Positions 2,415 through 63,312 of a DNA stretch of 64,000 nucleotides are shown here, piece by piece. The notes under the pieces were generated by a model that was not told the DNA's origin, ran no database searches, and worked only from the letters and a program-made list of their open reading frames with translations. This stretch comes from a virus: positions 1 to 64,000 of IMG/VR virus record IMGVR_UViG_3300038312_000168, one strand, 5' to 3'. Made by a program: the position numbers and the translations under genes. Within the stretch, counting starts at the first letter, position 1, and the number at the start of each line of letters is the position of its first letter.

Positions 2415-2545
2415 CCACAATCAAAAAAACATGCTGGAAACATGCAGTTTTGATAGGTTTTAGAGGTATAACTTGCAAAAAAGGTATAAACATACCACCG
2501 TGATAGTATAGTCGTTAATTTGCATGTTTTACTCGAAGGAAATCG
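2415..2545 (+). repeat. copy B (most diverged) of five-copy intergenic element
   Basis: CCACAATCAAAAAAAC ... AACATACCACCGTGA ... CATGTTTTACTCGAAGGAAATCG aligns block by block with copy A (AAATATACCACCGTGA ... GATGTTTTACTCGAAGAATTG). Confidence 0.65.
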
Positions 2546-2669
2546 CTTTGTTTTTCTAAACCCACAGAACTTGATTTGAATTTCAAAAACTCCCCAAATA
2601 CCCAAGAAAACGCCCAACTCGGTAAGCCACGCCACGCCTCTCCTTCTTCTCGGTGTCCATGTGTGTCCA

Positions 2670-3140
2670 CTATTGTTTATCTTTGTTCATCAATGCCCCT
2701 TTTTCGACATCAATGTATATATTTGAGCATTGATAACCAGGGATGTTCATTGATGCTAGTTTGTGGTATTTTCGCTCATATGAGTAAAAAACCATGAAAG
2801 GCATCATCTCAATAATGGGATAAAGTTTTGACTTTTTGAATACCTGGCCGTGCAACACATAACCATCTGGCCGTGCAACGTGACCGGTGATTATCACCGT
2901 ATCAGCATAGGGTAATGTGAATAACGCGCGATCATAAACGGTGATTATTCTATCCGTTTTTTGATTCGCATTCCCTTTGTTTTGTGTCTGTTTTTTTAAT
3001 CTCCATAGATTAGCCGTATTTTGTTGTTGGTTACACCCTTGTAGATTGCGTATAATCGACGATCTCACATCAGGTAGGGTAAAAGTATCACCTGTAAAAT
3101 TGATACGCTTAAAACGCTTATAATCAGGTGATAGTATCAT
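2670..3140 (-). CDS. hypothetical protein (156 aa)
   Basis: ORF track, ATG start at 3140; no recognisable motifs. Confidence 0.5.
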   Translation of the reverse strand: MILSPDYKRFKRINFTGDTFTLPDVRSSIIRNLQGCNQQQNTANLWRLKKQTQNKGNANQKTDRIITVYDRALFTLPYADTVIITGHVARPDGYVLHGQVFKKSKLYPIIEMMPFMVFYSYERKYHKLASMNIPGYQCSNIYIDVEKGALMNKDKQ

Positions 3141-3538
3141 TGTATATTAGATAGGGTTTACTTTTACTTAAAGTATAGGAATCCTTATATGTTGGTAACA
3201 TAGGTATATAAACGGAGTATAAGCGTATCAGTTAGAATCTTTTATTTTGGGTTACGTTTATCAATTCAGGGTTATCTAGGTTATTTTTCTGTTTTTCATG
3301 TGACATTTCGATAGGTATAAATACTCTTGAGTATACCTCTATGTATCCCGTGGATACCCTAGCGTGTGGATAGGGTACGACGTAAGCAGAACCGGAGCGA
3401 AAGCCTATTCCAGTCTTTTACTTACCACCATTACATTACTATGTAGGATGCGGAAAGTCTCAAACAAGAGGATAAGGTAAGTAGTGCATGTGTATCTTTA
3501 ATGCGTAATGCAAGCGGATACGCCGGTATACAAATAGT

Positions 3539-3581
3539 GTGCTCCATCGTTTTAGACGTGAGATCAAATCTAATGGAGCAC
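3539..3581 (+). promoter_or_regulatory. intercistronic hairpin module 1
   Basis: Stem GTGCTCCAT/ATGGAGCAC, 25-nt loop containing TTTTAGACGTGAGATCAAAT; followed by CCC-taaat-GGG mini-hairpin and SD GGTAAGGAAGTG of 3610 gene. Confidence 0.6.
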
Positions 3582-3609
3582 ATGCCCTAAATGGGTAAGG
3601 AAGTGTATT

Positions 3610-3801
3610 ATGGGTGATTTAGGTTACTCTGTAAAATGTTATGACTGTGGAAGAGAATTTTTATGTGGTGAGCATTTTTTTTCGTATCCGCCATCAGAAC
3701 GTGTTTGTTATCATTGTGCGTCTAAACGGCAACAATACGCTATAGACGTATCAGAGACATATACTGATGATTTAGAGCCGTGTTTACCCTACTATGATTA
3801 A
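3610..3801 (+). CDS. small zinc-ribbon protein (63 aa)
   Basis: CYDC ... CYHC cysteine pairs; ATG preceded by AAGGAAGTG SD. Confidence 0.6.
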   Translation: MGDLGYSVKCYDCGREFLCGEHFFSYPPSERVCYHCASKRQQYAIDVSETYTDDLEPCLPYYD

Positions 3802-3813
3802 AGAGGTAAGAGA

Positions 3814-4056
3814 ATGCCAAAAATGACACGTAAATCTGTTATGGTATACTACTTTGTGGTTATGAAAAATGGAGGTATCGTTAAGGAAACAGCAAAATAC
3901 ACTGTAATTGATGGAATTTATAAAGATAGGAATGTGTATGTAGGAAACAAGGGAGCTGTTAGAATTGGAAGAACAATTACAGATAGTATTTCAATCACTG
4001 ATACGTTTAATTTTGAAATTATGTTTGATATGGTCGAAAAACATAGGAATAGATAA
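3814..4056 (+). CDS. hypothetical protein (80 aa)
   Basis: ATG preceded by AGAGGTAAGAG; same-strand array. Confidence 0.55.
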   Translation: MPKMTRKSVMVYYFVVMKNGGIVKETAKYTVIDGIYKDRNVYVGNKGAVRIGRTITDSISITDTFNFEIMFDMVEKHRNR

Positions 4057-4095
4057 CCCTATCATTTTAGATGTGGCATCAATGCAAATAGGGTT
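4055..4095 (+). promoter_or_regulatory. intercistronic hairpin module 2
   Basis: Stem AACCCTAT/ATAGGGTT overlapping stop codon, loop with TTTTAGATGTGGCATCAAT, then T5 run, second hairpin CCCTACTA/TAGTAGGG running into SD GGGAGGAAGTG. Confidence 0.6.
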
Positions 4096-4135
4096 TTTAC
4101 CCTACTAGGTATTTAGTAGGGAGGAAGTGTGAAAA

Positions 4136-4564
4136 ATGGAAATCTACGAAAGGAAACTGACAACTGCTAGAGCACTCGAACAACTGGAAAAACTCTTTGT
4201 GTCGCTCAATGAGCGTTTGGAGGAGGATATAGGCAATTTTAATGGTGAGAGAGAGTTTTTTGTAGTAGTTGAACATGATAATGGTTATATGGTCGGTGAT
4301 TACAACAGAAATGACTGGAAAACTGATAGAGCAAAAATCGGATACCGTAATGGAGAGTTTTGTCTGATTTGTCACAATGCAAGTTACGACGAGCAATACC
4401 GGGATTATTTTAAGGTTGATTCCGGTGAGTTTTGGAGGATTAAAAAGATTAATTTCGCTGAAATGTTTAATGCTCTTATAATGGTAGTAGAAACGTATAA
4501 TGTGAAGTCAAAAGCAAAAGATGAAGAGATAGAGCGTTTTCTTGAAATTGCCAAACAATTTTAA
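4136..4564 (+). CDS. hypothetical protein (142 aa)
   Basis: ATG with strong SD GGGAGGAAGTG upstream. Confidence 0.6.
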   Translation: MEIYERKLTTARALEQLEKLFVSLNERLEEDIGNFNGEREFFVVVEHDNGYMVGDYNRNDWKTDRAKIGYRNGEFCLICHNASYDEQYRDYFKVDSGEFWRIKKINFAEMFNALIMVVETYNVKSKAKDEEIERFLEIAKQF

Positions 4565-4606
4565 CCCTTTTTACATCAGGTAATGAGATTCAATTCTCTA
4601 AAGGGT
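4564..4606 (+). promoter_or_regulatory. intercistronic hairpin module 3
   Basis: Stem ACCCTTT/AAAGGGT, 29-nt loop containing GAGATTCAAT; followed by CCCA-aaa-TGGG and SD TAGGAAGTG. Confidence 0.5.
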
Positions 4607-4637
4607 ATTTCCCAAAATGGGATTAGGAAGTGTTTAA

Positions 4638-5123
4638 ATGAATGTTAAAACGGTATTACATGGTATTGTAAAGCGAATAGGCGATGATCTCTATCGTAAT
4701 GAAAATGATAAAGTGGTGCATAAGACTGATGAATTTAGAGATTTGTATTTTAACGCTCATAATGGGTTTATGCCCGACGATATAATCTATGAGCATATCT
4801 ATCATATCATTTCTGAAATTGAGATGTATCTACGGTATAAAGAAGATGATTGTGACGATATAGATGATTTGATAGATGAACTAACAGAAGAGATCAACAT
4901 AGAACCTGATCAGTATACTGGTGCTTTACTTGATTGGTTATCGTCAAATCTTAACAGATACGCTATTGCTGAAGAACTATACCAACAGGATTACAAGTAT
5001 GGTTCATTGTTTGATCTTATGCAAGTAGCACAATCTACAGAGATTGAAGAGGTTAAAATGTCTATACTCAATGATTTAAGGAGTATGGTGGAAGAGGAAG
5101 AGGATAAGGAAGATGAAAGTTAA
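4638..5123 (+). CDS. hypothetical acidic protein (161 aa)
   Basis: ORF track; SD AGGAAGTG upstream; Asp/Glu-rich C-terminus. Confidence 0.6.
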   Translation: MNVKTVLHGIVKRIGDDLYRNENDKVVHKTDEFRDLYFNAHNGFMPDDIIYEHIYHIISEIEMYLRYKEDDCDDIDDLIDELTEEINIEPDQYTGALLDWLSSNLNRYAIAEELYQQDYKYGSLFDLMQVAQSTEIEEVKMSILNDLRSMVEEEEDKEDES

Positions 5124-5274
5124 AGAATTAATTAAAGAGTTACAAAATTGTAACCCTGAAAAAGACGTTATTTATATTGAAGATGGAATATATAAAATGC
5201 TTATTGTAGAAATGAAAGAATGTCGATATTATACGGTTTTATCTGGTGTTCCACTAGATGAATTTAAACCATAA
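5113..5274 (+). CDS. hypothetical small protein (53 aa, below track cutoff)
   Basis: ATG 5113 overlaps the end of the upstream gene (stop 5121-5123); uninterrupted to TAA 5272-5274, which sits at the foot of hairpin module 4. Confidence 0.45.
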   Translation: MKVKELIKELQNCNPEKDVIYIEDGIYKMLIVEMKECRYYTVLSGVPLDEFKP

Positions 5275-5320
5275 ACCCTTTAACTTTTTGAAGTTGTTAA
5301 GTTCATTACTTAAAAGGGTT
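5274..5320 (+). promoter_or_regulatory. intercistronic hairpin module 4
   Basis: Stem AACCCTTTAA/TTAAAAGGGTT (one bulge), 26-nt loop; followed by T-run, CCC-gaaa-GGG and SD GGTGAGG. Confidence 0.5.
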
Positions 5321-5345
5321 TTACCCGAAAGGGTGAGGTAAAACT

Positions 5346-5510
5346 ATGTTACACGTTCTGAAAAGCGAAAACAGAGATGTAGAAAGGTTTTTGTCGAAAT
5401 GCACGATTAGAATACCCTGCAATCATTGTTATGGTGCTGGCTGTGCTCATTGTAGTGGATTTGGGTATACACGTGAAATCATAGACTCACGTAAGGTTAT
5501 AGAGGTTTGA
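5346..5510 (+). CDS. mini-protein with DnaJ-type CxxCxGxG zinc-finger repeat (54 aa, below track cutoff)
   Basis: Translation contains CNHCYGAGCAHCSGFG (two consecutive CxxCxGxG units); SD GGTGAGG ~7 nt upstream of ATG 5346; stop TGA 5508-5510. Confidence 0.5.
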   Translation: MLHVLKSENRDVERFLSKCTIRIPCNHCYGAGCAHCSGFGYTREIIDSRKVIEV

Positions 5511-5512
5511 TT

Positions 5513-5914
5513 ATGGATTATGAACTTTTAAACGAGATCAATGATAATGATGCTAAAGAGATGGAAGAGTATAGGATAGAAGAACCAGAAAGGGATAATC
5601 CTGTAATAGAGGAAGGATGTATCTTTGATGGCGCGAGGGGTATATACATATTCTATCTTGCTGTGCGTTATGCGATTGAAAATGGGTTTAATCCCTCCGA
5701 TGAATGGAAAGAACAAGTAAAAAGAGCACAAGAGAAAGGAGAAGATGAAGAGGATTATCTTACTCATAATTATGAATGGATATTTGACGAAATGGAGAAC
5801 GCCGAAGATTGGTTAAATGCTGAAATAGCAGATGATGAGCATTATTTTGGGACTGTCCTTGATGGAACGGATTGGGGATATTGGGAAGTAGAAGAGGATT
5901 GGTTATCTATTTAA
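5513..5914 (+). CDS. hypothetical acidic protein (133 aa)
   Basis: Track start 5507 is TTG; ATG at 5513 preceded by AGAGG. Confidence 0.6.
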   Translation: MDYELLNEINDNDAKEMEEYRIEEPERDNPVIEEGCIFDGARGIYIFYLAVRYAIENGFNPSDEWKEQVKRAQEKGEDEEDYLTHNYEWIFDEMENAEDWLNAEIADDEHYFGTVLDGTDWGYWEVEEDWLSI

Positions 5915-5920
5915 ATATAC

Positions 5921-5962
5921 ACCCTTTTTCATTTTAGATGTTGGTTCAATCCAGAAAAGGGT
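5921..5962 (+). promoter_or_regulatory. intercistronic hairpin module 5
   Basis: Stem ACCCTTTT/AAAAGGGT, loop with TTTTAGATGTTGGTTCAAT; then T5, CCC-gaaa-GGG and SD GGGAGAGTG. Confidence 0.6.
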
Positions 5963-5987
5963 TTTTCCCGAAAGGGAGAGTGATTAC

Positions 5988-6380
5988 ATGGAAAAATGGG
6001 TATTTCTTACTGGAGATGTAAACTGGAAACAGTTTGGCGCTAAATGGTTTAAGATTGATAGTTATGATAATGATTATTGTTACGTCATTGAGATAATTAA
6101 TTTTGAGGATGCTACAGGAGAAAAAATCAAGGTTGATGAAGGTGAATACCGTTATGTTGGTATTCTCTATACGGTTCTCTTGGATAATGAAAGTGCTATA
6201 AAATCAGCATTATCATCATTTGGTGAAACACTAGAGGATCTTAAGGGATTAACCAAAAAACAAAGGGTAAAACGTATTGCTGAAGCAATTTCTTCTTATG
6301 GTTATCCTATGGATAGGGATGAAGAATTGTATTCTAATAATGCTGATACGCTTTTAGCAGAACTAAAGAATATGAGGTAA
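5988..6380 (+). CDS. hypothetical protein (130 aa)
   Basis: ORF track; SD GGGAGAGTG upstream. Confidence 0.6.
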   Translation: MEKWVFLTGDVNWKQFGAKWFKIDSYDNDYCYVIEIINFEDATGEKIKVDEGEYRYVGILYTVLLDNESAIKSALSSFGETLEDLKGLTKKQRVKRIAEAISSYGYPMDRDEELYSNNADTLLAELKNMR

Positions 6381-6385
6381 GTATA

Positions 6386-6805
6386 ATGGAGTTTTCAGAT
6401 ATTCTTAAAGCGTTATGGCATTCTTCCTATGCAAGTGCATTATCAGAACCGAAAGTGCATGTATTTGTAGGGAATAGTAGGCATATCAGTATTTCACCGT
6501 TCTATAATGCGAATTGTGATACGGGATTTGAAGACGAAAAGAAAATGTTACAAGGGAAATTGAGTAAGATTAACCTAAATTTGTTTAAAAACTTTCATCT
6601 ACTTTGTTTTACGGAATTACTCATTATTCCAAAGTTTAAGGCTGGAAAAGTTATTGTGATTAATGAGTATGGTGATTTCGTAAACGAGATTCACGTAAAA
6701 AACATACAGACTATTATCAGTTTTAATCCGTTAACGGTTTTCAGGGTTAAAACACGTCAAGACGTGGAATTAAAGGGTAATAATGTTAGGATGGTGAGGA
6801 AATGA
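6386..6805 (+). CDS. hypothetical protein (139 aa)
   Basis: ORF track; 5-nt gap to upstream gene, ATGA overlap with next gene. Confidence 0.55.
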   Translation: MEFSDILKALWHSSYASALSEPKVHVFVGNSRHISISPFYNANCDTGFEDEKKMLQGKLSKINLNLFKNFHLLCFTELLIIPKFKAGKVIVINEYGDFVNEIHVKNIQTIISFNPLTVFRVKTRQDVELKGNNVRMVRK

Positions 6806-7029
6806 CCTTTAAAGTTTATATTGTCGCATGGAAAAATGGAAGTAGTCAAATTGGAGTAAAATGCCTAGGTAAAAACTGGGAAAAACGTTTTGCATCAGAG
6901 ATTGATGATATTGATCAGGTTTTTGGCACTCAAATACCGCACAGAGTTATCGCTGATACTCCTGATGGATATAGGATTATGACTCCTTCAGAGGCGAAGA
7001 AAAAGGGATTTGAGTATAGATTTATTTAA
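6802..7029 (+). CDS. hypothetical protein (75 aa)
   Basis: ATGA start/stop overlap with upstream gene (translational coupling). Confidence 0.55.
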   Translation: MTFKVYIVAWKNGSSQIGVKCLGKNWEKRFASEIDDIDQVFGTQIPHRVIADTPDGYRIMTPSEAKKKGFEYRFI

Positions 7030-7100
7030 TTCTCTTTTACTTTTCATAAAGGTTAATGGGATTCATTAACCGTGAAGAAGTGCTAAGGAGATGAAGAAGA

Positions 7101-7412
7101 ATGTCGTTTGAATTGACGAATCAAGGATTTATGGCCAAAGTAGGAAATTATGAGATTGAGCATTACAGTAGTGGAGTGTTTGAAGATGATGTGAAAGTAA
7201 AGCGTAATGGAAAAGAATTGTTTACTATTGCGTTTCCCATCGTCTCACATGATTATAAAATACATCCTGTTATGATCATAGGAGATGAACATATCAATTT
7301 AGATGTTTTTGAAATGAGCAATTATCCCAACGATGATGGAATAGCTCAGGAAATGTATTACAACGAGATTTATGTGTATGTGCTGGAACAAATTATAAAG
7401 GAATTAGAATAA
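7101..7412 (+). CDS. hypothetical protein (103 aa)
   Basis: ORF track; SD TAAGGAGATG upstream. Confidence 0.55.
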   Translation: MSFELTNQGFMAKVGNYEIEHYSSGVFEDDVKVKRNGKELFTIAFPIVSHDYKIHPVMIIGDEHINLDVFEMSNYPNDDGIAQEMYYNEIYVYVLEQIIKELE

Positions 7413-7483
7413 CTTTAAAAAACTTTAATCTTTTCGTGTTGTTAAGTAGATGTGGTTAATGGGATTATTGGAGATGTGAGATT

Positions 7484-7963
7484 ATGAAGGATTACAGAGA
7501 GTTTACAGTATTTGAAAGAGAAACGATTGATGATATTTGTATCGAAATGCACAAACAACGCTTATCACGTTGTAAAATATGTGTAAATATGCATAGGTAT
7601 AACAATGTGGGATTATGGTTTAAATTTGATAATGATCCGTATTATGCATACCCTTTAACCCTTGAAAAAGCGATAGAATCATTTGTAAAAGAAATACCAA
7701 TAGAACTATTCGATTTTAATTATGATGATAGTTATCCTGATTATTCCGACGATGATATTTTTAAGGAGATTGATGAGATTCAGGAATATGAATCTGATAT
7801 GGTTTTACACAATGTAAAACAGATTCTTTATTACCTGTATATTGGTGATTTGGAAACTATCAAAACGGCACTTGATGATATTGATTATTGTTATCAAGCG
7901 GGGAAAGATTATAATGATGAATTAGAGACATTGAAAGAAATTGTAAAGGAATATACAAGTTAA
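7484..7963 (+). CDS. hypothetical acidic protein (159 aa)
   Basis: ORF track; SD GGAGATGTG upstream; last gene of + array. Confidence 0.6.
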   Translation: MKDYREFTVFERETIDDICIEMHKQRLSRCKICVNMHRYNNVGLWFKFDNDPYYAYPLTLEKAIESFVKEIPIELFDFNYDDSYPDYSDDDIFKEIDEIQEYESDMVLHNVKQILYYLYIGDLETIKTALDDIDYCYQAGKDYNDELETLKEIVKEYTS

Positions 7964-7968
7964 GTTTA

Positions 7969-8005
7969 GGTTAAGTCAACTTCGGTTGCCTTAACCACTT
8001 TTTTT
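7969..8005 (+). terminator. hairpin plus T7 run ending the + strand small-gene array
   Basis: GGTTAAG-tCAAC-ttcg-GTTGc-CTTAACC nested stem (7969-7996) followed by T7 (7999-8005), 6 nt after stop of 7484..7963. Confidence 0.5.
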
Positions 8006-8032
8006 ATTCAATTTTGGTGTTGCTACGAAAGT

Positions 8033-8277
8033 GTTGATTAGTGTTACGGGATAATACTTTTCGCTTTGTGGTTGGATGTGGTTACGTGTGTTGATTTTAG
8101 TATCGTGAGTGTTACCAGAGCCACATAGCGTTGATTTGAGACAGTTTAGTATCAGGATGTAGTTTAGTATAGGGAGAAGGGAGATCGTCGATTAGAAGAA
8201 GCATGTTTCTAAGGGTATTTGGTTGATTGAGTTTTGATTTAGGTTTATTTTGGGAATTGTATAATTGTAGGGTTGAT
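8033..8277. repeat. cluster of GTTGAT(T) iteron-like repeats
   Basis: GTTGAT at 8033, 8090, 8130, 8222, 8272 and TTGATT at 8234; accompanied by GTGTTAC (x2) and GTTTAGTAT (x2) direct repeats; ORF-free region. Confidence 0.6.
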
Positions 8278-8500
8278 AATGTTAAATCATTATGGATAGT
8301 GGAAGTGCTACTGTGGTGTGGTAGTGGTGATTATGAGACATAGAGTCATTAATACTTTAAGGTTAATTTGGGTTTGGAATTGATACTAAAGTAGAATAAC
8401 TATCCTCACCTGTCATTACCCTGAACTCGCTATTCGATTTTCAGCATAATCATTTTTGTTATATATTTCTAACATTGTTCATATTAATCCGATCAATAAA

Positions 8501-8560
8501 TCTATATAGTTCTATAGAATCTATATAGTTCTCTATAGTGCTCTATAGGTCACTATAGTT
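8501..8560. repeat. six tandem ~10-bp units each carrying a CTATAG/CTATATAG palindrome
   Basis: tctatatagt|tctatagaat|ctatatagtt|ctctatagtg|ctctataggt|cactatagtt: helical-phase (10 bp) spacing. Confidence 0.75.
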
Positions 8561-9183
8561 ATTGTTAGGTTATCCCTAACTATCACCATATCACCAAACA
8601 TACATGATATCTCACGATATGTATGTTGCTTATCTATCATGATCTATCATGGTTCGAGTTGCGGTAAATGGATATTCCCCGCAATTATGAGGAGATTAGA
8701 GTATTCGACAAATAGTCGATAATCCTTTGAGTATATCGAATGGATACCGCATAGATACGCAATGACGATACCAACATAGCGTCATTATCGTATCACCCTT
8801 CAGACTGCATAGAAAACAGGGCATAATGAGCAGGGATTAGAACGCTATACAATGAGGGATTGATGATAGACACAAGCAAAAATGAGATCAAGTTAATTCA
8901 GTTTTACTTTTACTCTGTCATACCCATATCACTACCCTATGAGACGTACATAGTGCGTCTACAATGCGCGCACTCACCTAGATGATATGCGAGTATCCCT
9001 ATGCTGATATGTGACAGTATAGGGTTACTGTGTGGCTATGTTGTTACCATCTCATGTATGAGATAGACCACCATTATTCACCAATGTTTGTGACCATGTA
9101 TACCTATGTGCATTGATGAACATATGTGAGCATTGATGTATTGATTCGTACATCTACGAAAAGTAGAGACCGGGGGTGCGGTT

Positions 9184-9217
9184 AGACACCTTCGGTTAAG
9201 TGTCTCAAAAATTTTTT
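9184..9217 (+). terminator. hairpin plus T-run in ORF-free region (terminator-like)
   Basis: AGACAC-cttcggttaa-GTGTCT (9184-9205) followed by caaaaaTTTTTT (T6 at 9212-9217); preceded by a G+C-rich stretch GAGACCGGGGGTGCGG. Confidence 0.3.
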
Positions 9218-9319
9218 ATAAAAAAATAACTAAATCTGGGTAAAAACCCCTAAATAAACCTATTTCTCAAAAAAGAGTTAAAACCCATTACTTCTCTATT
9301 CTTCAAAATTGCAACACTA

Positions 9320-9454
9320 TCAACAATACTCATAACGCTCTGCACATTCTGGATTTGAACACCGATACATCTTCATAATATAAACTTCTGTACCAATTTT
9401 AAACCCTTTCTTACCACAATAAACAATCAATGAACCACAACGTGAGCAATACAC
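9320..9454 (-). CDS. small zinc-ribbon protein (44 aa, below track cutoff)
   Basis: Open frame directly downstream of 9488 gene; CSRC ... CSNPEC cysteine pairs; only a GTG start (9454), SD AGGTGG is ~16 nt upstream, so weak. Confidence 0.3.
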   Translation of the reverse strand: MYCSRCGSLIVYCGKKGFKIGTEVYIMKMYRCSNPECAERYEYC

Positions 9455-9487
9455 TTTCTTAATTGTAACACCACCTGATTATCATTT

Positions 9488-9895
9488 TTAATCCTTTTTT
9501 CTTTCATATACCTCATTGTAACACTTCTCTGCATCATATATGCACTTTACAATAACCTCTTCACTTACTTTAGTATACAACATAACTGACAATAACGAAA
9601 TCAAACCAGGAATAGTAGCAACATACTCATCTTTATCTGCATGATACGCTAAAATGCCCGATTCTGCAAGATCTTGTAATTGTACCCTGAATGGTAGAGT
9701 ATCATTAAAAAAAACACCACATAACAACGTAGTAAAGGCATTATTTCCACGATTGGTAAGAATATACTCATCATTATCAGTTTTGGTCATAAACCCATAA
9801 TCAACAAAGGTGGGAAACATGGCAATTACTTGTTTGGTAAGATGCTCATCTTGGTTTCCTAACTTCACATTCAAAAAATCAATAAACGAAATCAT
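9488..9895 (-). CDS. tandem-repeat winged-helix-like protein, paralog 1 (135 aa)
   Basis: Track start 9916 is GTG; ATG 9895 has SD GGAGAG 8 nt upstream. Clear similarity to 9937..10305 (..PT....M.K.....Y..T..G..AF .. DKDEY..T..G....LS). Confidence 0.6.
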   Translation of the reverse strand: MISFIDFLNVKLGNQDEHLTKQVIAMFPTFVDYGFMTKTDNDEYILTNRGNNAFTTLLCGVFFNDTLPFRVQLQDLAESGILAYHADKDEYVATIPGLISLLSVMLYTKVSEEVIVKCIYDAEKCYNEVYERKKD

Positions 9896-17044: not shown

Positions 17045-17117
17045 TGACAACGAAGGGATTTGAACCCTCACTTGACAGTTTTGGAGACTGCTGCACTTCC
17101 GATTATGCTACGTTGTC
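17045..17117 (-). tRNA. tRNA-Trp: tRNA-Trp(CCA)
   Basis: Acceptor GACAACG/CGUUGUC, D stem GCAU/GUGC, anticodon stem GCAGU/ACUGU with loop CUCCAAA, T arm GAGGG-UUCAAAU-CCCUU; no encoded CCA. Confidence 0.9.
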
Positions 17118-17120
17118 TAA

Positions 17121-17201
17121 TGTGTCAGACAGGGTTTGAACCTGTGATACCCTTCGGCAAAGGATTTTAAGTCCTCCGTGTTTCCGCTCCACCACTGACA
17201 C
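17121..17201 (-). tRNA. tRNA-Leu: tRNA-Leu(UAA), class II with long variable arm
   Basis: Acceptor GUGUCAG/CUGACAC, anticodon stem GAGGA/UCCUU with loop CUUAAAA, 14-nt variable arm, T arm ACAGG-UUCAAAC-CCUGU. Confidence 0.9.
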
Positions 17202-43708: not shown

Positions 43709-43903
43709 TTACCAACATCCATAGTCTGTTAAATCGATACATTCACCACAATTTTCACATTCCGCTTTATGAACACAACCAATTCCTGTTCCAATAATGT
43801 GTAAGTGAATCGTTAATTCATATTTATTATCATCAAAACAACGCTCATGTCGAGCGATAAACTGATTGAGTTGTGCAAGTTCATTTTCGTTTAGTTCTAA
43901 CAT
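43709..43903 (-). CDS. hypothetical Cys-rich protein (64 aa)
   Basis: ATG 43903 in TAATG overlap with RNR stop (track start is GTG); C-terminal CENCGEC..C. Confidence 0.5.
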   Translation of the reverse strand: MLELNENELAQLNQFIARHERCFDDNKYELTIHLHIIGTGIGCVHKAECENCGECIDLTDYGCW

Positions 43904-46900
43904 TATCCGCACCTACTGTATCCACACGCACAAGTCTTACAACCTTCAACCATACTTAAATGTTCACCACATTCAGGACAGATATTTGATTCAGTCTTTA
44001 TTTCTTCCTTACATGGAATAGAAATTGGTTCTGATTCTTTATCAGGAATCAGACTTTCAATTACTCGACCGATAACATCCGAGCATGATTTTCCATCACA
44101 ATTACCTTCAGAGAATTTCTTGTAAGCGACAGGACAAGTAACATTACGTAAAGTCTTGATTATATCCCAGGTAGGAACATTCCAACGCATTGAAAGAGAA
44201 ATCATCTGTCCCAATGCATCATTCATAGCGGTGCAACCACCTTTGTTGTTTATAATGCATTCATAGGGTTTACCATCTTTTTCTGCAACGGAAATGATAA
44301 GTTTACCACAACCTGAACGTCTCTTACTATTTGTAGCGGGAAGATCAGATGGGCGCTTAGGTAGGATTCTACCATCGGGGAGTGGTGTTGTAGGGGTGGA
44401 ATCTTTCTTGAGTTCCATTACAATATCATCTCTGCTACCTGTTACATAAATGGTAACTCCCTTACATCCTTTCTCATAAGCGTAAAGAATAGCACTTCTA
44501 ATATCGTCTTTAGTAGCGCCTGGAGGCATGTTAATTGTCTTACTGATTGCAGCATGACAATACTGTTGAAACGCTGCCTGCATGTCAATGTGTGACTTCC
44601 AATCGATGTCAAGAGCCGTCTTGAACACAGATTTAAACTCTTTAGGCAACCATGTAATATCTTGAATAGTCCCTGTTTCGTAAGCATGATTGATTACTTC
44701 CTGCTTCTTTTTGTCCCATTGTGAAACCTCAACATGTGATTCAATGTAATTATTCAGTTTTTCTTCAAAGACTGGATCAACCATCAGGTATCCTTTCTTT
44801 TTACCATCTACCCATGTATACCGCTTGTGAACCAGGGAATAAACAGGTTCAATACCATATGAGGTTTCAGAGAGTGTTGCAATACTTCCAGTGGGTGCTA
44901 TACATGTTGTAGTTGCATTACGTATGGGTATATCATGTAGGAACCAATCAGAACCTTCATATGCTGGAAATACACCAAGTTCTTTTGCAAGTTCTCTTGA
45001 TGTTAGAACAGACATATCATTAAGAATGCCCATAACCTTTTTTGCCTGATACAGTGCATCAGAACTATCGTAAGGAATACCCATCTTCATTAGCATGTGA
45101 TGGAATCCCATGTAACCTAATCCAATCTTACGAGTCTTTCTACTCGCTTCTGCAATCTCTTCAATAGGATATTTGTTAAGATCAATAATCTTATCAAGAA
45201 ACTCTGTTGAAAGTTCAATGGTATTTATTAAATCATTTTGCATTAATCCATTATTATTAACAAAGTTAGATAAATTTATACTGCCTAGATTACATGATTC
45301 GCCTGGTAATAGTGGTTGCTCTCCGCAGTTAGAGGCCAATATGCCGTTGAAAATGCCAGTATGGTTCTTAGGCTCGTTGAAACAGTAAACCTTGTCTACA
45401 ATTTCATTGTTCCGTTCAATAGATACAATTTTAATAAACCTTTTTGCATCTCTTTTATTAGTTGTTACAGTGGGGACTCTATATGTTTTAAACCCAAGAT
45501 CAACCAATTTTTTAACATTAGATGCAGGAATTGTAAGTCTATAACAATCAAGACAATAATATTCTTTTTGACCACCATTACCATCGGGCATTAATTTATA
45601 ATCAGATTTTTTCATCAAATTAACAGAAGTATTAATACCAAGTGTATCAAGCATATATTTTACATCCATTAAAAAATCTCTTTTAACAGATGAAATAGCG
45701 ATACTACCTTCACTTGTATTTTTACATCCATCACTGTCAACAATTCCTGCTAACCATTCTAATCTTGATTTAATTGTATATGAACAATTAGGAACAAACA
45801 ATTTTTCATAATCACCCTGTAATGTAACAAGAATTCTATCGTGATCATCACTTTGATTATAATTAACACGTTTTGCATTTAAATATTCTACTAAATCTTT
45901 TTTAATTCCATATAAATATATATACTTTATACCATTTGATTGACATTTATAACCATCACCACTAAAGAAACCATGTGTATATGCAAATTCAAGTTCTTTT
46001 TTACCCTCAATAACGGGGTAATCACACTTGATAAGTTTGTCACCTACTACTAAATCCTTTGCTTCTTTTTTAACAATTTTATTTTTATTACCTTTATAAC
46101 CATATTGTAAAACAAACTTATGATAAGGAGTACATTTTACTTTGTTACCATCACTGAATGTTACTTCCATAACCTCTTGATCGTATCCAGTAACACACGG
46201 AGTAACAACACTCCATTCAAACCCATTCCAGATAGTTGTTTCTTTATCTACACACTCATCAATGCGCTTATATCCTTCATTGGTAAGAATGAGTGTTTCA
46301 CCAACCAAACACGGATTGGTTGCTTCAATATTACCAAGATGTTTGCAAGTATTATCATCATTAATTGTATTGTAGAATAATACCCCTGGTTCACCTGTCT
46401 TGGAAATTCCATCTACAATCTTATCAAAAACTTCTTTCGCTCTGATTGTTTTGTAAACTTTACCATCGAAGTGAAGATTATACTCTTTATCATTCTTTAC
46501 AGCACTAATAAATTCATCATCAATCATTACAGAAATATTGAAGTTAGAAAGATCACCTTCAGTATTCTTACACGCAATGAACTTCTCAATATCTGGATGC
46601 CAAACAGGGAGAACACCCATATTCGCACCCCTTCTTTTAGATCCCTGAACCACAGCACCAGTAGCAGCATTAAACACTTTCATGAAAGAAATGGGGCCTG
46701 ATGCAACACCATCTGTTCCATTTACTTTGTCACCTTCAGGTCGAAGATTACCAAAGGAAAATCCTGTTCCACCTGCTGCCTTATGAATTAATGCGGCATT
46801 TTTAATTGCATCAAAAATACTTTCCATTGAATCATTTACAGGAATTACAAAACATGCAGAAAGTTGTCCTATTTCCGTTCCTGCATTCATAAGTGTAGGC

Positions 46901-47064
46901 GAATTAGGCACAAAATCTTTATTCACCATCATATCATAGTAAATCTCTCGTTCATCGTCCGTATTTCCTACATAGTCTGCAACTCTTCTACAGACATCTT
47001 CCCAGGACGATTCACCTTCACGGAAATAACGAGCAGCAAGAACTTCATTAACAATGTCACTCAT
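43903..47064 (-). CDS. nrdJ: class II (B12-dependent type) ribonucleotide reductase interrupted by an intein (1053 aa precursor)
   Basis: PNSPTLMNAG, LSACFV, GGTGFSFG.LRP, ASGPISFM, KRRGA, ...ATNP[C-intein-N]CGEQPL..ESCNLGSINL; C-terminal Zn-ribbon CPECG...CKTCACG. Confidence 0.9.
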   Translation of the reverse strand: MSDIVNEVLAARYFREGESSWEDVCRRVADYVGNTDDEREIYYDMMVNKDFVPNSPTLMNAGTEIGQLSACFVIPVNDSMESIFDAIKNAALIHKAAGGTGFSFGNLRPEGDKVNGTDGVASGPISFMKVFNAATGAVVQGSKRRGANMGVLPVWHPDIEKFIACKNTEGDLSNFNISVMIDDEFISAVKNDKEYNLHFDGKVYKTIRAKEVFDKIVDGISKTGEPGVLFYNTINDDNTCKHLGNIEATNPCLVGETLILTNEGYKRIDECVDKETTIWNGFEWSVVTPCVTGYDQEVMEVTFSDGNKVKCTPYHKFVLQYGYKGNKNKIVKKEAKDLVVGDKLIKCDYPVIEGKKELEFAYTHGFFSGDGYKCQSNGIKYIYLYGIKKDLVEYLNAKRVNYNQSDDHDRILVTLQGDYEKLFVPNCSYTIKSRLEWLAGIVDSDGCKNTSEGSIAISSVKRDFLMDVKYMLDTLGINTSVNLMKKSDYKLMPDGNGGQKEYYCLDCYRLTIPASNVKKLVDLGFKTYRVPTVTTNKRDAKRFIKIVSIERNNEIVDKVYCFNEPKNHTGIFNGILASNCGEQPLLPGESCNLGSINLSNFVNNNGLMQNDLINTIELSTEFLDKIIDLNKYPIEEIAEASRKTRKIGLGYMGFHHMLMKMGIPYDSSDALYQAKKVMGILNDMSVLTSRELAKELGVFPAYEGSDWFLHDIPIRNATTTCIAPTGSIATLSETSYGIEPVYSLVHKRYTWVDGKKKGYLMVDPVFEEKLNNYIESHVEVSQWDKKKQEVINHAYETGTIQDITWLPKEFKSVFKTALDIDWKSHIDMQAAFQQYCHAAISKTINMPPGATKDDIRSAILYAYEKGCKGVTIYVTGSRDDIVMELKKDSTPTTPLPDGRILPKRPSDLPATNSKRRSGCGKLIISVAEKDGKPYECIINNKGGCTAMNDALGQMISLSMRWNVPTWDIIKTLRNVTCPVAYKKFSEGNCDGKSCSDVIGRVIESLIPDKESEPISIPCKEEIKTESNICPECGEHLSMVEGCKTCACGYSRCG
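45328..46311 (-). mobile_element. intein (328 aa) with LAGLIDADG homing endonuclease domain in the RNR NPCGEQ active-site loop
   Basis: Begins Cys (CLVGETLIL; codon at 46309-46311), ends ...GILASN (45328-45330) followed by +1 Cys of CGEQ; two dodecapeptide motifs YTHGFFSGDGY and LEWLAGIVDSDGC. Confidence 0.9.
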
Positions 47065-48363: not shown

Positions 48364-49236
48364 TTACACCAACATCTGTTTCAAGTAAAAGTCAATCTCA
48401 CTCTGCATATAATTAAGCGATAAATTGTTGTTTAATCTACACGTAAACAATTCACTGTCTCTGTGTATCGTAAACATTCCTTCATCTCTCTCTACACGTT
48501 CCTTGCCTACACGTTTAATTCTGGTAGACAAATCAGCGTAGACACGAATGCACTTGATGTCATACACTTCACCGAAGTTCTGCATGAGGTAAATCAATCC
48601 ACGCTCATCAATTACATATGTGTTATAATCCAGCACATCCTTCTTCAAACAACAGTAACGATACCCACCAAACTCTGTGTAGGCAATCATATCATCGCGT
48701 GAGAAGGTATCAAACTCTTCTTTGGTTACAAAAGTATGTCCTGTCTCACCTGGATAACGTATAGGACGATCCGTGTAGGACTCCATCATCTTGATACCAT
48801 GCTCACGCTCAATATACTCTGCAATGGTTGTCTTACCACTTCCTGACTCGCCCACAATACAGATAATAAGGGGTTTACGATTTACCTTACGCATTACATG
48901 GTAGCGAATATCATTCCAACAAATAACCCTGTGTGAGTATTCCTTATCATCAATATAAATATCTGCACCAATCTTTCTACAATCATTACCATATTCCTCA
49001 ATGCGGTAACAAAGATTCTCATTGACATCATTGAACTTGATTTCATTATCAATGAGAAATTCAACCATTTCACGTTCTTCTCTCCCTTGACGACATGAAT
49101 TGATGATAATATCATGTCCCTCATCATATAGTTCATTGATTACCTCTTTAGCATTACGCTTCAGATAACCAATGTCAGGATACTTGTTTGTTACAATAGT
49201 CCCGTCAAAATCTACTGCAATAACTAATTTCTTCAT
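48364..49236 (-). CDS. fusion protein: HAD-family (deoxy)nucleotidase-like phosphatase + guanylate-kinase-like P-loop kinase (290 aa)
   Basis: N-terminus IAVDFDGTIV (DxDGT) ... ADIYIDD; C-terminus IVGESGSGKTT plus SYTDRPIRYPGETGHTFVTKEEF (GK signature s.TtR.pR.gE..G..Y.Fv..eeF); ATG 49236 in TAATG overlap. Confidence 0.7.
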   Translation of the reverse strand: MKKLVIAVDFDGTIVTNKYPDIGYLKRNAKEVINELYDEGHDIIINSCRQGREEREMVEFLIDNEIKFNDVNENLCYRIEEYGNDCRKIGADIYIDDKEYSHRVICWNDIRYHVMRKVNRKPLIICIVGESGSGKTTIAEYIEREHGIKMMESYTDRPIRYPGETGHTFVTKEEFDTFSRDDMIAYTEFGGYRYCCLKKDVLDYNTYVIDERGLIYLMQNFGEVYDIKCIRVYADLSTRIKRVGKERVERDEGMFTIHRDSELFTCRLNNNLSLNYMQSEIDFYLKQMLV

Positions 49237-49664
49237 TAAGTCACCACACATACAATAATAAATCCAATCATAAAACCAATAAGAATACAAACAATGTAAG
49301 AATAATTTTGATCTATTATATTACCAATAGTTCTTTCTTTGACTTGTTCATCAGTAATCAAAACTTCTTCCTCTTCTTCTTCCATATTCTCCAATTCTTC
49401 AATGATCATATCCACATCAATGAATCGTGCTTCTGGTTGTGGATTTACTTCTGCCATTGATTTAAGTGTAAAGAGAGAACGTGTAACAACAACAGCAAGT
49501 TCTTCATCCTCAAATGATGCAATATTCACTGCACCATTGACAAATCCATTAACATCATACATTCCTGTTATGTCATTGTAATGACACTCAAATCCACAGA
49601 AATCGAGGAAATTGTAAGGAGTGTAACATTTACACTCCTCATTGTAAATATCCAGGCAAATCAA
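49236..49664 (-). CDS. Cys-rich, acidic, C-terminally membrane-anchored protein (142 aa)
   Basis: TTG start 5-6 nt after GAAGGTG; N-terminal C..C.C...C..C, poly-Glu stretch, C-terminal TM (YIVCILIGFMIGFIIVCVV). Confidence 0.5.
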   Translation of the reverse strand: MICLDIYNEECKCYTPYNFLDFCGFECHYNDITGMYDVNGFVNGAVNIASFEDEELAVVVTRSLFTLKSMAEVNPQPEARFIDVDMIIEELENMEEEEEEVLITDEQVKERTIGNIIDQNYSYIVCILIGFMIGFIIVCVVT

Positions 49665-50555
49665 TTAAACACCTTCAATCTGAATATCCCTGATTCTCTG
49701 TTGATAATACTGGAAAATGTTTCTAGGTGCACAACAATTATGTTTCTTACATTCTTCATTAATATATTGCGCAACTAACGGCATTGCAACTTTAATATCA
49801 GTAAAGTCATTACCAATGTCTGTTCTTACCTTTTCTATTGCACCGTAAATTTCAGAATCAGGTAATGTAGGTAACTGAATCTTACCTATTTCTTCCATTC
49901 TAGGTATCTTTTCCAGAGAAGGAAGATCCTGTTTCTCTTTGAAATAAACAATACCCCTCTTAGTTCCTGCACCTTCACCACAATTCCAGGGCAATTCAGC
50001 CCAAACTTTACCTACAACACCCTCCATGCTGTTTTCTTTCGCCTTTGTAATCATCTCATCTTTAAATTCATACAGAGATTCAATTGTAGAAACATTGCAC
50101 GTTCCATACAATTCTACAACCGGAATATCAAAGTGATAACAGGTCTGATACACTTTGTTATAATGAAGGAATCTGTTTTGTTTTGCGCTCCAAATATCAA
50201 ACACTACAAAATCATAATCCTCATGCATCTCAATACGTGTAGGTGAACGTCCTTTCATTAACATTTCACCAAAAACAACTAATTCATCACCATAATCACG
50301 CTCATTTAGAATCATGTCACGGATTGCATCAACATGGGATGTCTGATTGAATCCACTGTAAAACATATCAGAGGCATTTGCTAGATTCCTACTGCGTAAA
50401 TGAATGTTATTTTCATCATTTAAACAGATTCCAAGGCAGGAACCATCTCTTTTTACTTGAAAAAAGATTTCCTGACCCAAAAGAATCTCAGGGTTAGGTT
50501 TCAGATTCGCAATCCTTTCAAGTTCTGGATACTTGATCTTGTCTATCTCAATCAT
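49665..50555 (-). CDS. ATP-dependent polynucleotide ligase, RNA-ligase-like motif I (296 aa)
   Basis: Nucleotidyltransferase motifs QVKRDGSC (I, KxDGS without the DNA-ligase Arg), VVFGEM (III), FVVFDI (IV), EGVVGK ... YFKEK (V). Confidence 0.6.
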   Translation of the reverse strand: MIEIDKIKYPELERIANLKPNPEILLGQEIFFQVKRDGSCLGICLNDENNIHLRSRNLANASDMFYSGFNQTSHVDAIRDMILNERDYGDELVVFGEMLMKGRSPTRIEMHEDYDFVVFDIWSAKQNRFLHYNKVYQTCYHFDIPVVELYGTCNVSTIESLYEFKDEMITKAKENSMEGVVGKVWAELPWNCGEGAGTKRGIVYFKEKQDLPSLEKIPRMEEIGKIQLPTLPDSEIYGAIEKVRTDIGNDFTDIKVAMPLVAQYINEECKKHNCCAPRNIFQYYQQRIRDIQIEGV

Positions 50556-53175: not shown

Positions 53176-53682
53176 TTAAAAGAAGTAATCAAGTGAATTG
53201 CATTGATGTGACTTCTTCGATTGTTCAATGCGCGTTTTATCGGGCATTACGAGTGCAACCTTCTGTTTCTTAAACATCTTTTCATCCGCTTGCATTTCTG
53301 CAAGGAATGTTTTCATGTTATCTTTGTCACTGATATACATCTTAATAAGAGGTGAATACTCATCAAACTCTCTTTTACTCATATCAAGCGCACTTGATGT
53401 TTTCTCGTAATAATTATCGAGCAGTGTATCCAACTTGTCTTTCTTCACCTTATCCTTACGAATCCAGATAGGCATACAATACATCTGTTGTGCGTGTAGG
53501 AGAAGTAATCCACGAAAGATTGATGGGTTGATCTTGAATAAATATTGATTAAGTTTATCCGCTTCCTCCAGATACATTACATCCTGTGAAAAGATACGGA
53601 GAAGCATATATTCCTTTCCTACAAGATGTGAAGGGTAGATTTGCTCCTTACTGATGATACGCTTCATTAAATTGAACGGCAT
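53176..53682 (-). CDS. hypothetical protein with C-terminal PIP-like tail (168 aa)
   Basis: ORF track; extreme C-terminus ...QCNSLDYFF; overlaps upstream MTase gene by 16 nt. Confidence 0.55.
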   Translation of the reverse strand: MPFNLMKRIISKEQIYPSHLVGKEYMLLRIFSQDVMYLEEADKLNQYLFKINPSIFRGLLLLHAQQMYCMPIWIRKDKVKKDKLDTLLDNYYEKTSSALDMSKREFDEYSPLIKMYISDKDNMKTFLAEMQADEKMFKKQKVALVMPDKTRIEQSKKSHQCNSLDYFF

Positions 53683-54155
53683 TTAATACACTCCTTACTC
53701 GTTAATCCATTACGTATACGTTCACCAAACACTACAATGCAGGATGGAAATGGTGCTGCCATAGGTTTACGATGAGTAGGATTAGTAAATTTAACTCTAC
53801 CACTGATAAATCTAATCTCATCGGCAAGCATGATATATTTATGCCAATAAGAAGTATCAGTCCGGGCAGGAATGAGACAAACAACAGTAGCACCACATAA
53901 TGCCTCATTGTATGCCTTCTCTACCCATCGTGGTATTTCCTTACCGTAAGGAGGATTCATAAAGACTATATCTTTACTCCAATCTTTGTATAATCCATTT
54001 TCCTCAATAGAGTAATACTTGTAACACTTTGCATTTTGTGATGTTGCACACGGATCAAGCGTAAAATTAAATTCGTCGTTCAATGCATCGAATAAATCAC
54101 GCGGGGTTTCCCATTCCATATCCTTTGAGGAATAATGCACATCCATCTTACTCAT
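53667..54155 (-). CDS. phage Dam-type DNA N6-adenine methyltransferase (162 aa)
   Basis: EWETPRDLFDALNDEFNFTLDPCA, VFMNPPYG (NPPY), LIPARTDTSYWH, GRVKF: the small phage Dam family pattern. Confidence 0.85.
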   Translation of the reverse strand: MSKMDVHYSSKDMEWETPRDLFDALNDEFNFTLDPCATSQNAKCYKYYSIEENGLYKDWSKDIVFMNPPYGKEIPRWVEKAYNEALCGATVVCLIPARTDTSYWHKYIMLADEIRFISGRVKFTNPTHRKPMAAPFPSCIVVFGERIRNGLTSKECIKCRSI

Positions 54156-63262: not shown

Positions 63263-63312
63263 GTATATCACTATTTTATTTCCTGTAACAACATTAAAAA
63301 GGTTGTTATATG

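Follow-up and report, generated by a model that had tools for sequence, protein, structure and literature searches.

A covarying three-way junction RNA repeated between small early genes of an uncultured phage, and its possible role as an intercistronic cassette

Introduction

The early mRNA of phage T7 and that of Bacillus phage SP82 contain intercistronic RNase III processing sites, which in SP82 are associated with a polypurine 5' stabiliser. The 5' stabilisers of Firmicute mRNAs further include STAB-SD and others (cryIIIA, the aprE leader), of which STAB-SD works without an adjacent start codon. In B. subtilis, RNase III needs a duplex of about two helical turns (10-36 bp), RNase Y prefers A/U-rich unstructured sites with downstream structure, and the role of the hairpin downstream is mainly to protect the cleavage product from RNase J1 (PMC11780869). 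At the RNase Y operon-maturation sites of cggR-gapA and glnRA, the first gene is followed by an unstructured, A/U-rich spot and, immediately after it, by a hairpin (PMC11780869). A different kind of intercistronic element is represented by the promoter-early stem-loop (PeSL) cassettes of T4-type phages (Arbiol 2010 PMC2839356; Comeau 2014 PMC4122927), defined by a stem-loop, a sigma-70 promoter with its -35 and -10 elements, a Shine-Dalgarno sequence (SD) and a start codon (PMC4122927); shuffling of genes with such cassettes at the junctions has been described for these phages (PMC2839356, PMC4122927). Here we describe a structured RNA element that occurs five times in an operon of small ORFan genes in a 64,000-nucleotide (nt) stretch of viral DNA (IMG/VR record IMGVR_UViG_3300038312_000168, positions 1 to 64,000; hereafter the window).

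Results of our analysis indicate that the element is a three-way junction (3WJ) of three covarying helices, lying with an adjoining hairpin and SD between the stop codon of one gene and the start codon of the next. We propose, tentatively and as a possibility that falls somewhat short of probable, that the whole module is a standard intercistronic or 5'-untranslated mRNA cassette for processing, stability and ribosome binding that also serves as a recombination joint.

Architecture of the module

Each of the elements is a 3WJ, in which an outer stem, P1, encloses two hairpins, P2 and P3. Among 67-70 distinct copies, the junction measures 38-60 nt, with 6-12 bp in P1, 3-6 bp in P2 and 2-6 bp in P3; the interior enclosed by P1 takes up 24-35 nt, and the three helices are connected via 0-3 unpaired nt. 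A preliminary description of the window had placed five same-orientation hairpin modules between the small + strand genes. All five outer stems are present at these positions on the + strand, and the covariance model presented below returns exactly these sites; the stems indeed differ in sequence and stay complementary, while the "25-26 nt loop" that they were thought to enclose is really the pair of hairpins P2 and P3. The loop motif TTTTAGAYGTK-N3-5-TCAAT, described at three sites, is found at two (4065 and 5932, with 0 expected by chance), as module 1 reads TCAAAT; a search of IMG/VR with this pattern, which is too degenerate for the purpose, returned only single chance matches.

While the stems vary, certain bases of the loops and of the junction hardly do. 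P2 loops read UUUAG, AUUUUG, AUCAG or UUUG, with a final G in 58 of 59 copies, and P3 has a GG/CC core and loops UUCAAU, AUCAAAU, UUCGAU or UUCAUUA, all 59 of which share U-C-R. The base directly after P2 is U, and that directly after P3 is A, in 52 of 59 copies each. In 59 of 67 copies the stop codon of the preceding gene (UAA in 52) adjoins the first P1 pair or overlaps it. In the window this holds for modules 2-5, so that the reported association of hairpin and stop codon applies to these and not to module 1, which has no upstream open reading frame (ORF).

The 3WJ is followed, in this order, by an A/U-rich linker (0-6 nt, 93% A/U), a second hairpin (hairpin 2), a strong SD (mostly AGGAAGUG) and AUG, with 24-42 nt between the end of P1 and the AUG. 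Hairpin 2 occurs in every copy; it comprises 3-13 bp, and its folding energy averages -8.8 kcal/mol. An SD of GGAAGU is seen in 55 of 68 copies, and the SD stands 5-7 nt ahead of AUG; its predicted pairing with the canonical anti-SD reaches -11.3 kcal/mol, compared with -2.1 for random 12-mers, and the AGGAAGUG motif is specific to the modules, the phage's other genes using SDs of GAGGUGA type. Coordinates and parts of the individual modules are collected in Table 1.

Table 1. Positions and parts of the intercistronic modules and of their operon in the window (bits and E values are those of the third-round covariance model, R3)
Feature	Positions	Strand	Model match or source	Parts and remarks
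3WJ copy 1, leader copy without upstream ORF	3537-3583	+	53 bits, E 1e-9	P1 3537-3547/3573-3583; P2 3548-3550/3556-3558, loop UUUAG; P3 3561-3564/3568-3571, AGAUCAAAUCU
Module 1, 3' part	3584-3612	+		hairpin 2 GCCC-UAAAU-GGGU 3584-3596; SD AAGGAAGUG 3597-3605; AUG 3610
3WJ copy 2	4055-4095	+	55 bits, E 3e-10	stop UAA 4054-4056 overlaps P1; P1 AACCCUAU/AUAGGGUU; P2 CAU-UUUAG-AUG; P3 GCA-UCAA-UGC
Module 2, 3' part	4096-4138	+		linker UUUUA; long hairpin 2 4100-4121 (9 bp); SD GGAGGAAGUG 4120-4129; AUG 4136
3WJ copy 3	4564-4606	+	28 bits, E 5e-4	stop UAA 4562-4564 abuts P1; P1 ACCCUUU/AAAGGGU; P2 UAC-AUCAG-GUA; P3 GAGA-UUCAAU-UCUC
Module 3, 3' part	4607-4640	+		linker AUU; hairpin 2 4610-4622 UCCCA-AAA-UGGGA; SD AGGAAGUG 4625-4632; AUG 4638
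3WJ copy 4	5273-5321	+	21 bits, E 0.02	stop UAA 5272-5274 overlaps P1; P1 AAACCCUUU/AAAGGGUUU; P2 AACUU-UUUG-AAGUU; P3 UAAG-UUCAUUA-CUUA
Module 4, 3' part	5322-5348	+		hairpin 2 5322-5335 UACCC-GAAA-GGGUG; SD GAGGUA 5335-5340; AUG 5346
3WJ copy 5	5921-5962	+	60 bits, E 3e-11	P1 ACCCUUUUU/GAAAAGGGU; P2 CAU-UUUAG-AUG; P3 UGG-UUCAAU-CCA
Module 5, 3' part	5963-5990	+		hairpin 2 5963-5980, core CCC-GAAA-GGG 5967-5976; SD GGGAGAGUGAU 5974-5984, mostly within hairpin; AUG 5988
Operon of 12 small ORFan genes punctuated by the modules	3610-7963	+	ORF list
Canonical intrinsic terminator closing the operon	7969-8006	+		GGUUAAG-loop-CUUAACC then U7; conserved in relatives

Covariation, strand and specificity

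The 142-aa protein encoded between modules 2 and 3, with its 61 homologues at 64-98% identity, served as the starting point for relatives, the contigs of which were collected via exact look-up and pattern scans. Modules of this kind, with differing stem sequences, also lie in the spacers between the genes of the orthologous operons, and altogether about 67 distinct copies are present among related metagenomic phages. A generic 3WJ finder that allows G-U pairs gives ~150 chance matches per strand in the window, which makes a 3WJ parse by itself meaningless; we therefore relied on alignments of orthologues made from sequence only and on covariance models. A hand-made alignment fitted to the parse (A4) shows 99.7% pairing, a circular figure of descriptive use only.

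In the sequence-only MAFFT alignment of ten orthologues of module 1 (A5), 96.7% of the 3WJ cells are paired, compared with 22-46% when the partners are slid by 1-3 columns; compensatory changes on both sides are seen in 8 of 18 pairs, and RNAalifold predicts from this alignment exactly the 3WJ de novo. Hairpin 2 of the long class, aligned likewise from sequence only, has 97.8% of its cells paired (26-48% in slid controls) and 5 of 9 pairs with compensatory changes. The covariance model, trained on relatives only and iterated three times (R1 to R3), found 59 and then 66 matches in ~139 kb of related DNA, every one on the + strand. The 52 distinct copies aligned to the model have 93.8% of their cells in pairs, as against 36-55% after sliding, and compensatory changes at 13 of 15 pairs; this alignment is model-fitted and thus biased towards structure.

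When R3 was run on the whole 64-kb window, on both strands and with filters off, it returned exactly the five module sites (E 3e-11 to 0.02). The next matches are the modules' own reverse complements (E>0.4), which score ~15 bits as compared with ~60 bits for the sense strand, that is ~45 bits lower. Since P1 contains G-U pairs in 43 of 67 copies and the scores are strand-biased, the folded molecule is the sense-strand RNA rather than DNA or an antisense transcript. Single sequences of modules 1-5 fold only modestly better than their dinucleotide shuffles (z = -3.3, -2.2, -0.7, -2.15 and -2.2), a comparison proposed earlier as a check. The strong evidence for the structure is comparative, and thermodynamics alone is insufficient to carry the claim.

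Searches for distant relatives with the neighbouring 216-aa protein gave full-length homologues at 82-99% identity only, and one further, partial match at 73%. A scan of IMG/VR with a tighter pattern of P2 and P3 gave 8 loci, one of which is a known relative; the other seven were rejected, as they have no P1, reach at most 17 bits with the model, do not belong to tRNA genes and resemble coding sequence. No convincing copy outside the clade was found in the IMG/VR pattern scans.

Terminators and known RNA families

A hairpin that overlaps a stop codon is typical of terminators, and in copies 2, 4 and 5 the sequence directly after P1 is GGGUUUUU. The modules might thus be leaky intrinsic terminators or attenuators that grade transcript levels down along the operon. 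The T-run that the preliminary description assigned to each module is, however, weak in module 3, absent in module 1 and not conserved in the relatives, which carry AAU, AAUG, AUAU or AUUU there. Moreover, where an intrinsic terminator has a G+C-rich, unbranched hairpin with a loop of 3-8 nt, the stem of the modules is A/U-rich at its base and its 25-nt interior is branched; a terminator scan of positions 2500-9500 gave 0 sites, and a textbook terminator at 7969-7996 marks the real end of the operon. We rejected the modules as intrinsic terminators, and consider the leaky variant extremely unlikely. With helices that covary, loop bases that are invariant, a T-run that is not conserved and a separate operon terminator, the earlier statement that conservation of structure together with sequence means more than a generic terminator holds good. 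Anti-termination, suggested at the same time, gains no support, as the repeated copies each lie exactly between stop codon and SD, unlike put- or EAR-type elements. No promoter-like site was found inside any module.

The search of Rfam 15 yielded chance-level matches only (GibS, 24.8 vs. 115 bits; mir-454, 19.6 vs. 60 bits), and none when a 56-nt query was used at E<=10. Self-cleaving ribozymes (hammerhead, twister, pistol, hatchet) and riboswitches were considered and rejected, as Rfam gave no match to them and the junction strands of 0-3 nt contain no conserved core.

Accessibility of the ribosome-binding site

The close contact of the stop codon with P1 could also be understood as part of a translational coupling switch, in which a terminating ribosome melts P1 and the ensuing refolding frees the SD, so that a gene is translated only after its neighbour. 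The second hairpin followed by an SD, on which the preliminary description based its proposal of SD sequestration, is present in all modules, and its 3' arm does overlap the SD in some copies; in copy 5, the unpaired probability of the SD is 0.11. In addition, direct inspection of the sequence of copy 2 and of relatives reveals that the P1 3' arm UAGGGU can pair with the hairpin 2 5' arm ACCCUA. This alternative hairpin is, however, absent from most subtypes. Over 68 copies, the 3' arm of hairpin 2 covers the SD only in part, leaving it half open (mean unpaired probability 0.57), and masking of the first 13 nt, in imitation of a terminating ribosome, does not open it further (0.53). Predicted pairing of the P1 5' arm with the SD (-5.7 kcal/mol) equals that of the shuffled arm (-5.7 kcal/mol), and copy 1 has no upstream ORF to couple to. 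A switch of this kind appears very unlikely.

A different intercistronic element of the same operon, at 7029-7101 (+), is a long imperfect hairpin (z = -3.9) conserved in three relatives (L125, L128 and L130). Its 3' arm holds the SD AAGGAG of gene 7101-7412, which is truly buried, unlike the SDs of the 3WJ modules.

Mosaic operons

In 13 related operons the gene families are shuffled, and 3WJs stand at the junctions that separate units of one to three genes; relatives with a complete operon carry 2-6 copies per early operon, the window five. Gene A, encoding the 142-aa protein, has seven different preceding neighbours and at least six following ones. A 3WJ of the leader type is always the first in the operon, and the subtype of module 4 in the relatives always precedes gene B, encoding a 54-aa CxxC protein, whatever lies upstream. 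The 3WJ subtype is about equally informative of the upstream gene (1.26 bits of mutual information) and of the downstream gene (1.23 bits); crossovers therefore seem to fall on either side of the module or inside it, and the association, equal on both sides, does not tell to which side the module belongs.

Both the mosaic gene order with modules at the junctions and the equal ties to the two flanking genes would be expected if the repeats were recombination joints and nothing else, providing DNA-level homology for cassette shuffling, as proposed for T4 PeSLs (PMC4122927), and having no RNA function. Recombination, however, needs identity and not compensatory changes, whereas the helices covary and tolerate G-U on the sense strand only, with the reverse strand scoring far below it, and the stems differ between paralogues of one genome, which lowers the homology. 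We find it highly improbable that the modules are joints only.

A candidate processing and stability cassette

Among the functional classes offered in the preliminary description, a putative RNase or protein recognition site or a processing signal is the most plausible. The order of a structured block, an A/U strand, a hairpin and a strong SD matches that of Firmicute operon maturation, and for this reason we propose a model in which both RNA ends are capped. A host endoribonuclease of RNase Y type would cut the A/U linker where it lies exposed between the 3WJ and hairpin 2; or there may be no cut, and these two structured blocks might simply stop exonucleases. The 3WJ would shield the upstream RNA at its 3' end from PNPase and RNase R, and hairpin 2 together with an SD-bound 30S subunit would cap the 5' end of the downstream cistron against RNase J1. 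A 5' stabiliser would have a strong SD-like element, a stem-loop or both within a few nt of the mRNA 5' end; the strong SD and hairpin 2 are present in all copies. Each ORFan cassette would in this way gain an autonomous, context-independent, stable and strong translation start. At the DNA level, the ~90-bp direct repeats could provide homology for gain, loss and exchange of cassettes between related phages.

Several points weigh against this model. All copies come from a single narrow phage clade (neighbouring proteins 64-99% identical), and the independent evolutionary events are therefore fewer than the sequences. In 19 of 67 copies hairpin 2 can reach the base of P1, so that a linker of 0 nt is predicted and little single strand is left to cut. 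At copy 1, a 3'-cap would serve a non-coding leader. The presence of RNase Y and RNase J1 is assumed from Firmicute-like SD usage and from one 2-kb contig binned with a Syntrophomonadaceae metagenome-assembled genome, which are no more than hints; the cleavage, the cut position and the nuclease are each our proposal. Finally, an exonuclease block alone would need neither invariant loop nucleotides nor the T-arm-like hairpin described below. As the cassette model leaves these two features unexplained, a protein operator and a tRNA-like punctuation stay alive as alternatives.

Invariant bases and possible partners

The invariant loop bases and the likeness of P3 to a T-arm suggest either a specific tertiary fold, with a T-loop docking the G of the P2 loop, or a specific partner. 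By analogy with the D and T loops of the tRNA elbow, P2 and P3 may dock loop to loop. As for a more extended kissing of the two loops, UUG/CAA pairing is possible in some loop variants only, and the key bases, being invariant, offer no covariation to score.

Invariant nucleotides in two hairpin loops and in the junction, combined with stems that covary freely, are the classic signature of an RNA recognised by a protein. The 3WJ might therefore be the operator of a trans-acting phage or host RNA-binding protein that co-regulates all early cassettes by translational shut-off, activation or targeted decay, in analogy to T4 RegA and RegB, which act on many early mRNAs. One copy stands ahead of each translational unit, the first gene included, and the motif is confined to the early ORFan operon and absent elsewhere in the 64-kb window. 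A search for such a partner among the phage proteins identified nothing RNA-binding, and the small proteins of the operon and its neighbourhood belong to no Pfam or PHROG family. Moreover, as the 3WJ lies 24-42 nt upstream of the AUG with hairpin 2 between it and the SD, direct steric control of initiation is not obvious. We regard an operator as unlikely, although worth keeping in view.

The second alternative concerns P3. It reads GGWUCR(A)AUCC and resembles the T-arm consensus G53-T-Psi-C-R-A-N-N-C61; in one copy P3 is exactly GGUUCAAAUCC, the corresponding sequence in the tRNA-Trp of the phage itself being GGGUUCAAAUCCC. On their 3' side P3 and P1 are continuous, like the T-stem and acceptor stem of a tRNA, with 0-2 unpaired nt between the two helices. 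A check against the T-arm showed the GG/CC closing pair in ~47-49 of 59 copies, a 6-nt loop in 29 of 59, and A at position 54 in the 7-nt form.

The 3WJ could thus mimic the acceptor-stem and T-arm half of a tRNA and be cut by host tRNA-processing enzymes, which would divide the operon into monocistronic mRNAs in the manner of mitochondrial t-elements and tRNAs. The cut would fall immediately 3' of P1 if made by RNase Z, or, if made by RNase P, immediately 5' of P1, directly behind the stop codon that abuts the first P1 pair. The invariant G of the P2 loop and C of the P3 loop could form a pair like G19:C56 of the elbow, and the plant-mitochondrial t-elements (PMC1920247) provide a precedent. 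However, ARAGORN recognised only two true tRNAs in the window and none of the modules, and Rfam models of tRNA, tmRNA or other tRNA-like families gave no match, even at E<=10 in the search space of a 56-nt query. With P1 of 6-12 bp, P3 of 2-6 bp and 0-2 nt bulges between them, the acceptor/T-stem ruler of about 12 bp (7+5) on which RNase P and RNase Z rely does not hold. A loop of 6 nt, UUCAAU, is found in half of the copies, and a loop of 7 nt can be closed further, to a CAA triloop; there is no discriminator-CCA, and a cut by RNase P would leave the upstream mRNA without a 3' structure. The modules are not strict tRNA mimics, as their stem lengths vary and tRNA models fail, and we likewise judge a tRNA-like punctuation of the operon to be unlikely.

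A looser version, and a decidedly doubtful one, holds that the 3WJ is a minimal mimic of the T-arm and elbow that hijacks a host tRNA-recognising enzyme to punctuate or mark the phage early mRNA. Candidates for this enzyme are RNase Z, RNase P or, in the role of an RNA chaperone, an enzyme of the T-arm such as TruB or TrmA. If true, this would be the counterpart in bacterial viruses of mitochondrial tRNA punctuation, achieved by a ~45-nt element unseen by tRNA detectors. The T-arm resemblance in any case offers a testable route to the question whether bacterial viruses process mRNA via tRNA mimicry.

The two tRNA genes of the window, for tRNA-Trp(CCA) and tRNA-Leu(UAA), lie at 17045-17201 (-), just upstream of the structural genes. 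An Rnl2-type RNA ligase (PF09414, E 5e-15) is encoded at 49665-50555 (-), adjoining a P-loop kinase-like protein (AAA_18) at 48364-49290 (-), an arrangement that resembles a phage RNA/tRNA repair pair. The two tRNAs and the ligase beside a kinase-like gene indicate that the phage already deals with tRNA biology.

Genomic context and neighbouring features

The window is the nearly complete genome, with 36% G+C, of an uncultured phage of ~65 kb, encoding tail and structural proteins, a family-B DNA polymerase, a ribonucleotide reductase, methylases, the two tRNAs and the RNA ligase. Metagenomes from fermentation and from anaerobic digesters have yielded contigs of 62-69 kb that are identical or related to it. 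Megablast and blastn searches of the region against 50,697 cultured phage genomes gave no nucleotide match, the sole alignment being to a purine-rich low-complexity stretch. Scans of ten operon proteins against each of the Pfam and PHROG libraries assigned none of them to a family.

Directly upstream of the first 3WJ, positions 3312-3536 (+) form a conserved, structured non-coding leader that is alignable across six relatives. RNAalifold gives it 53 pairs, 10 of them with compensatory changes (e.g., ACCCUA/UAGGGU vs. GCCUGA/UCAGGC), and it holds the invariant stretch ACGACGUAAGCAGAACCGGAGCGAAAGCCUAUCCAGUCUUUUAC; it has no match in Rfam and is deleted in one relative (L153). The leader may be a non-coding RNA or a regulatory leader, the 3' end of which is the 3WJ. 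A 50-aa ORF on the opposite strand, 3431-3583 (-), overlaps the leader and 3WJ copy 1; as the region forms a conserved RNA structure on the sense strand, this ORF is probably spurious. In another relative (L130), the gene caller put a 57-aa + strand ORF over the same element.

Beyond the operon terminator lies a non-coding stretch of ~1.4 kb (8000-9450) with clustered short direct and inverted repeats, namely CTATATAG and CTATAGN at ~8500-8560 and ATCATG at 8603-8651, and could represent an origin or a terminal region. In the alpha subunit of the ribonucleotide reductase (43903-47064, -; 1053 aa), the best matches cover ~80% of the protein; together with hedgehog/Hint domain annotations at some homologous loci, this suggests a putative intein. 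The terminase of the same contig has a faint LAGLIDADG match. A PAPS-reductase-domain protein adjoining a dCTP deaminase-like protein, and two DNA methyltransferases (Dam, N6_N4), are encoded at 54444-55945, 53667-54155 and 62510-63271, all on the - strand. The phage may modify its own DNA.

Comparison with known systems

The preliminary description missed the 3WJ architecture, the T-arm resemblance and the context of cassette shuffling. The 3WJ is a new RNA motif, absent from Rfam and previously undescribed, within a known kind of system, the cassettes for intercistronic processing, stability and shuffling in phage early regions. The motif, of ~45 nt with three covarying helices and invariant loop bases, is structured and well supported, and comes from a clade of uncultured ~65-kb phages of anaerobic digesters and fermenters. 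If the role proposed for the cassette holds, the module would be a natural plug-and-play unit of an insulator, two RNA end-caps and a strong ribosome-binding site, by which a phage could swap ORFan genes at constant expression. It would then link gene punctuation at the RNA level with PeSL-type shuffling, so far described in T4-like phages of Gram-negative hosts, and might find use as an operon insulator in Firmicute synthetic biology.

As in T7 and SP82, the structured elements of the window stand between early cistrons of a phage polycistronic RNA, the downstream product would begin near a purine-rich SD-like stabiliser and the upstream one would end in a hairpin. However, where such a site is a continuous duplex of about 20 bp that receives staggered cuts, P1 is branched and has only 6-12 bp (at least 10 bp, the lower end of the RNase III range in B. 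subtilis, in 24 of 67 copies and fewer in the rest); there is no sequence similarity, and cleavage of the modules is putative.

The RNase Y sites of cggR-gapA and glnRA share with the modules an A/U-rich spot followed by a hairpin, seen here as a linker of 93% A/U and an ever-present hairpin 2. Those sites have no conserved upstream structured element and no shared motif, in contrast to the modules, in which a conserved 3WJ precedes the linker and the whole unit is repeated in the operon. With STAB-SD and other 5' stabilisers, the modules have in common a very strong SD (-11.3 kcal/mol) and a hairpin near the presumed 5' end; the module SD differs in being a functional ribosome-binding site.

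The t-elements (PMC1920247) resemble the 3WJ in that a stem is stacked on a hairpin like a T-arm at the edges of coding regions, where either element could define mRNA ends; the P3 loop sequence resembles the T-loop consensus. The 3WJ differs from them in being missed by tRNA models, in its variable stem lengths and in a P2 far smaller than a D or anticodon arm. Its setting is that of a bacterium and its phage, and its processing is putative.

In genomic behaviour the modules resemble the PeSLs. Both are short composite regulatory cassettes that recur in the same direction among small ORFan early genes, opening with a stem-loop behind the preceding gene and closing with an SD and start codon, and both are found at the junctions of insertions, deletions and replacements that distinguish closely related phages. 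A PeSL, however, has a sigma-70 promoter between its stem-loop and SD, while the modules have none, the short interval from P1 to AUG being filled by hairpin 2 and the SD. Furthermore, its stem-loop is a simple terminator-like hairpin, and not a covarying 3WJ with invariant loop bases and a second hairpin, and it belongs to another phage lineage and host type. The modules are therefore not PeSLs in the strict sense.

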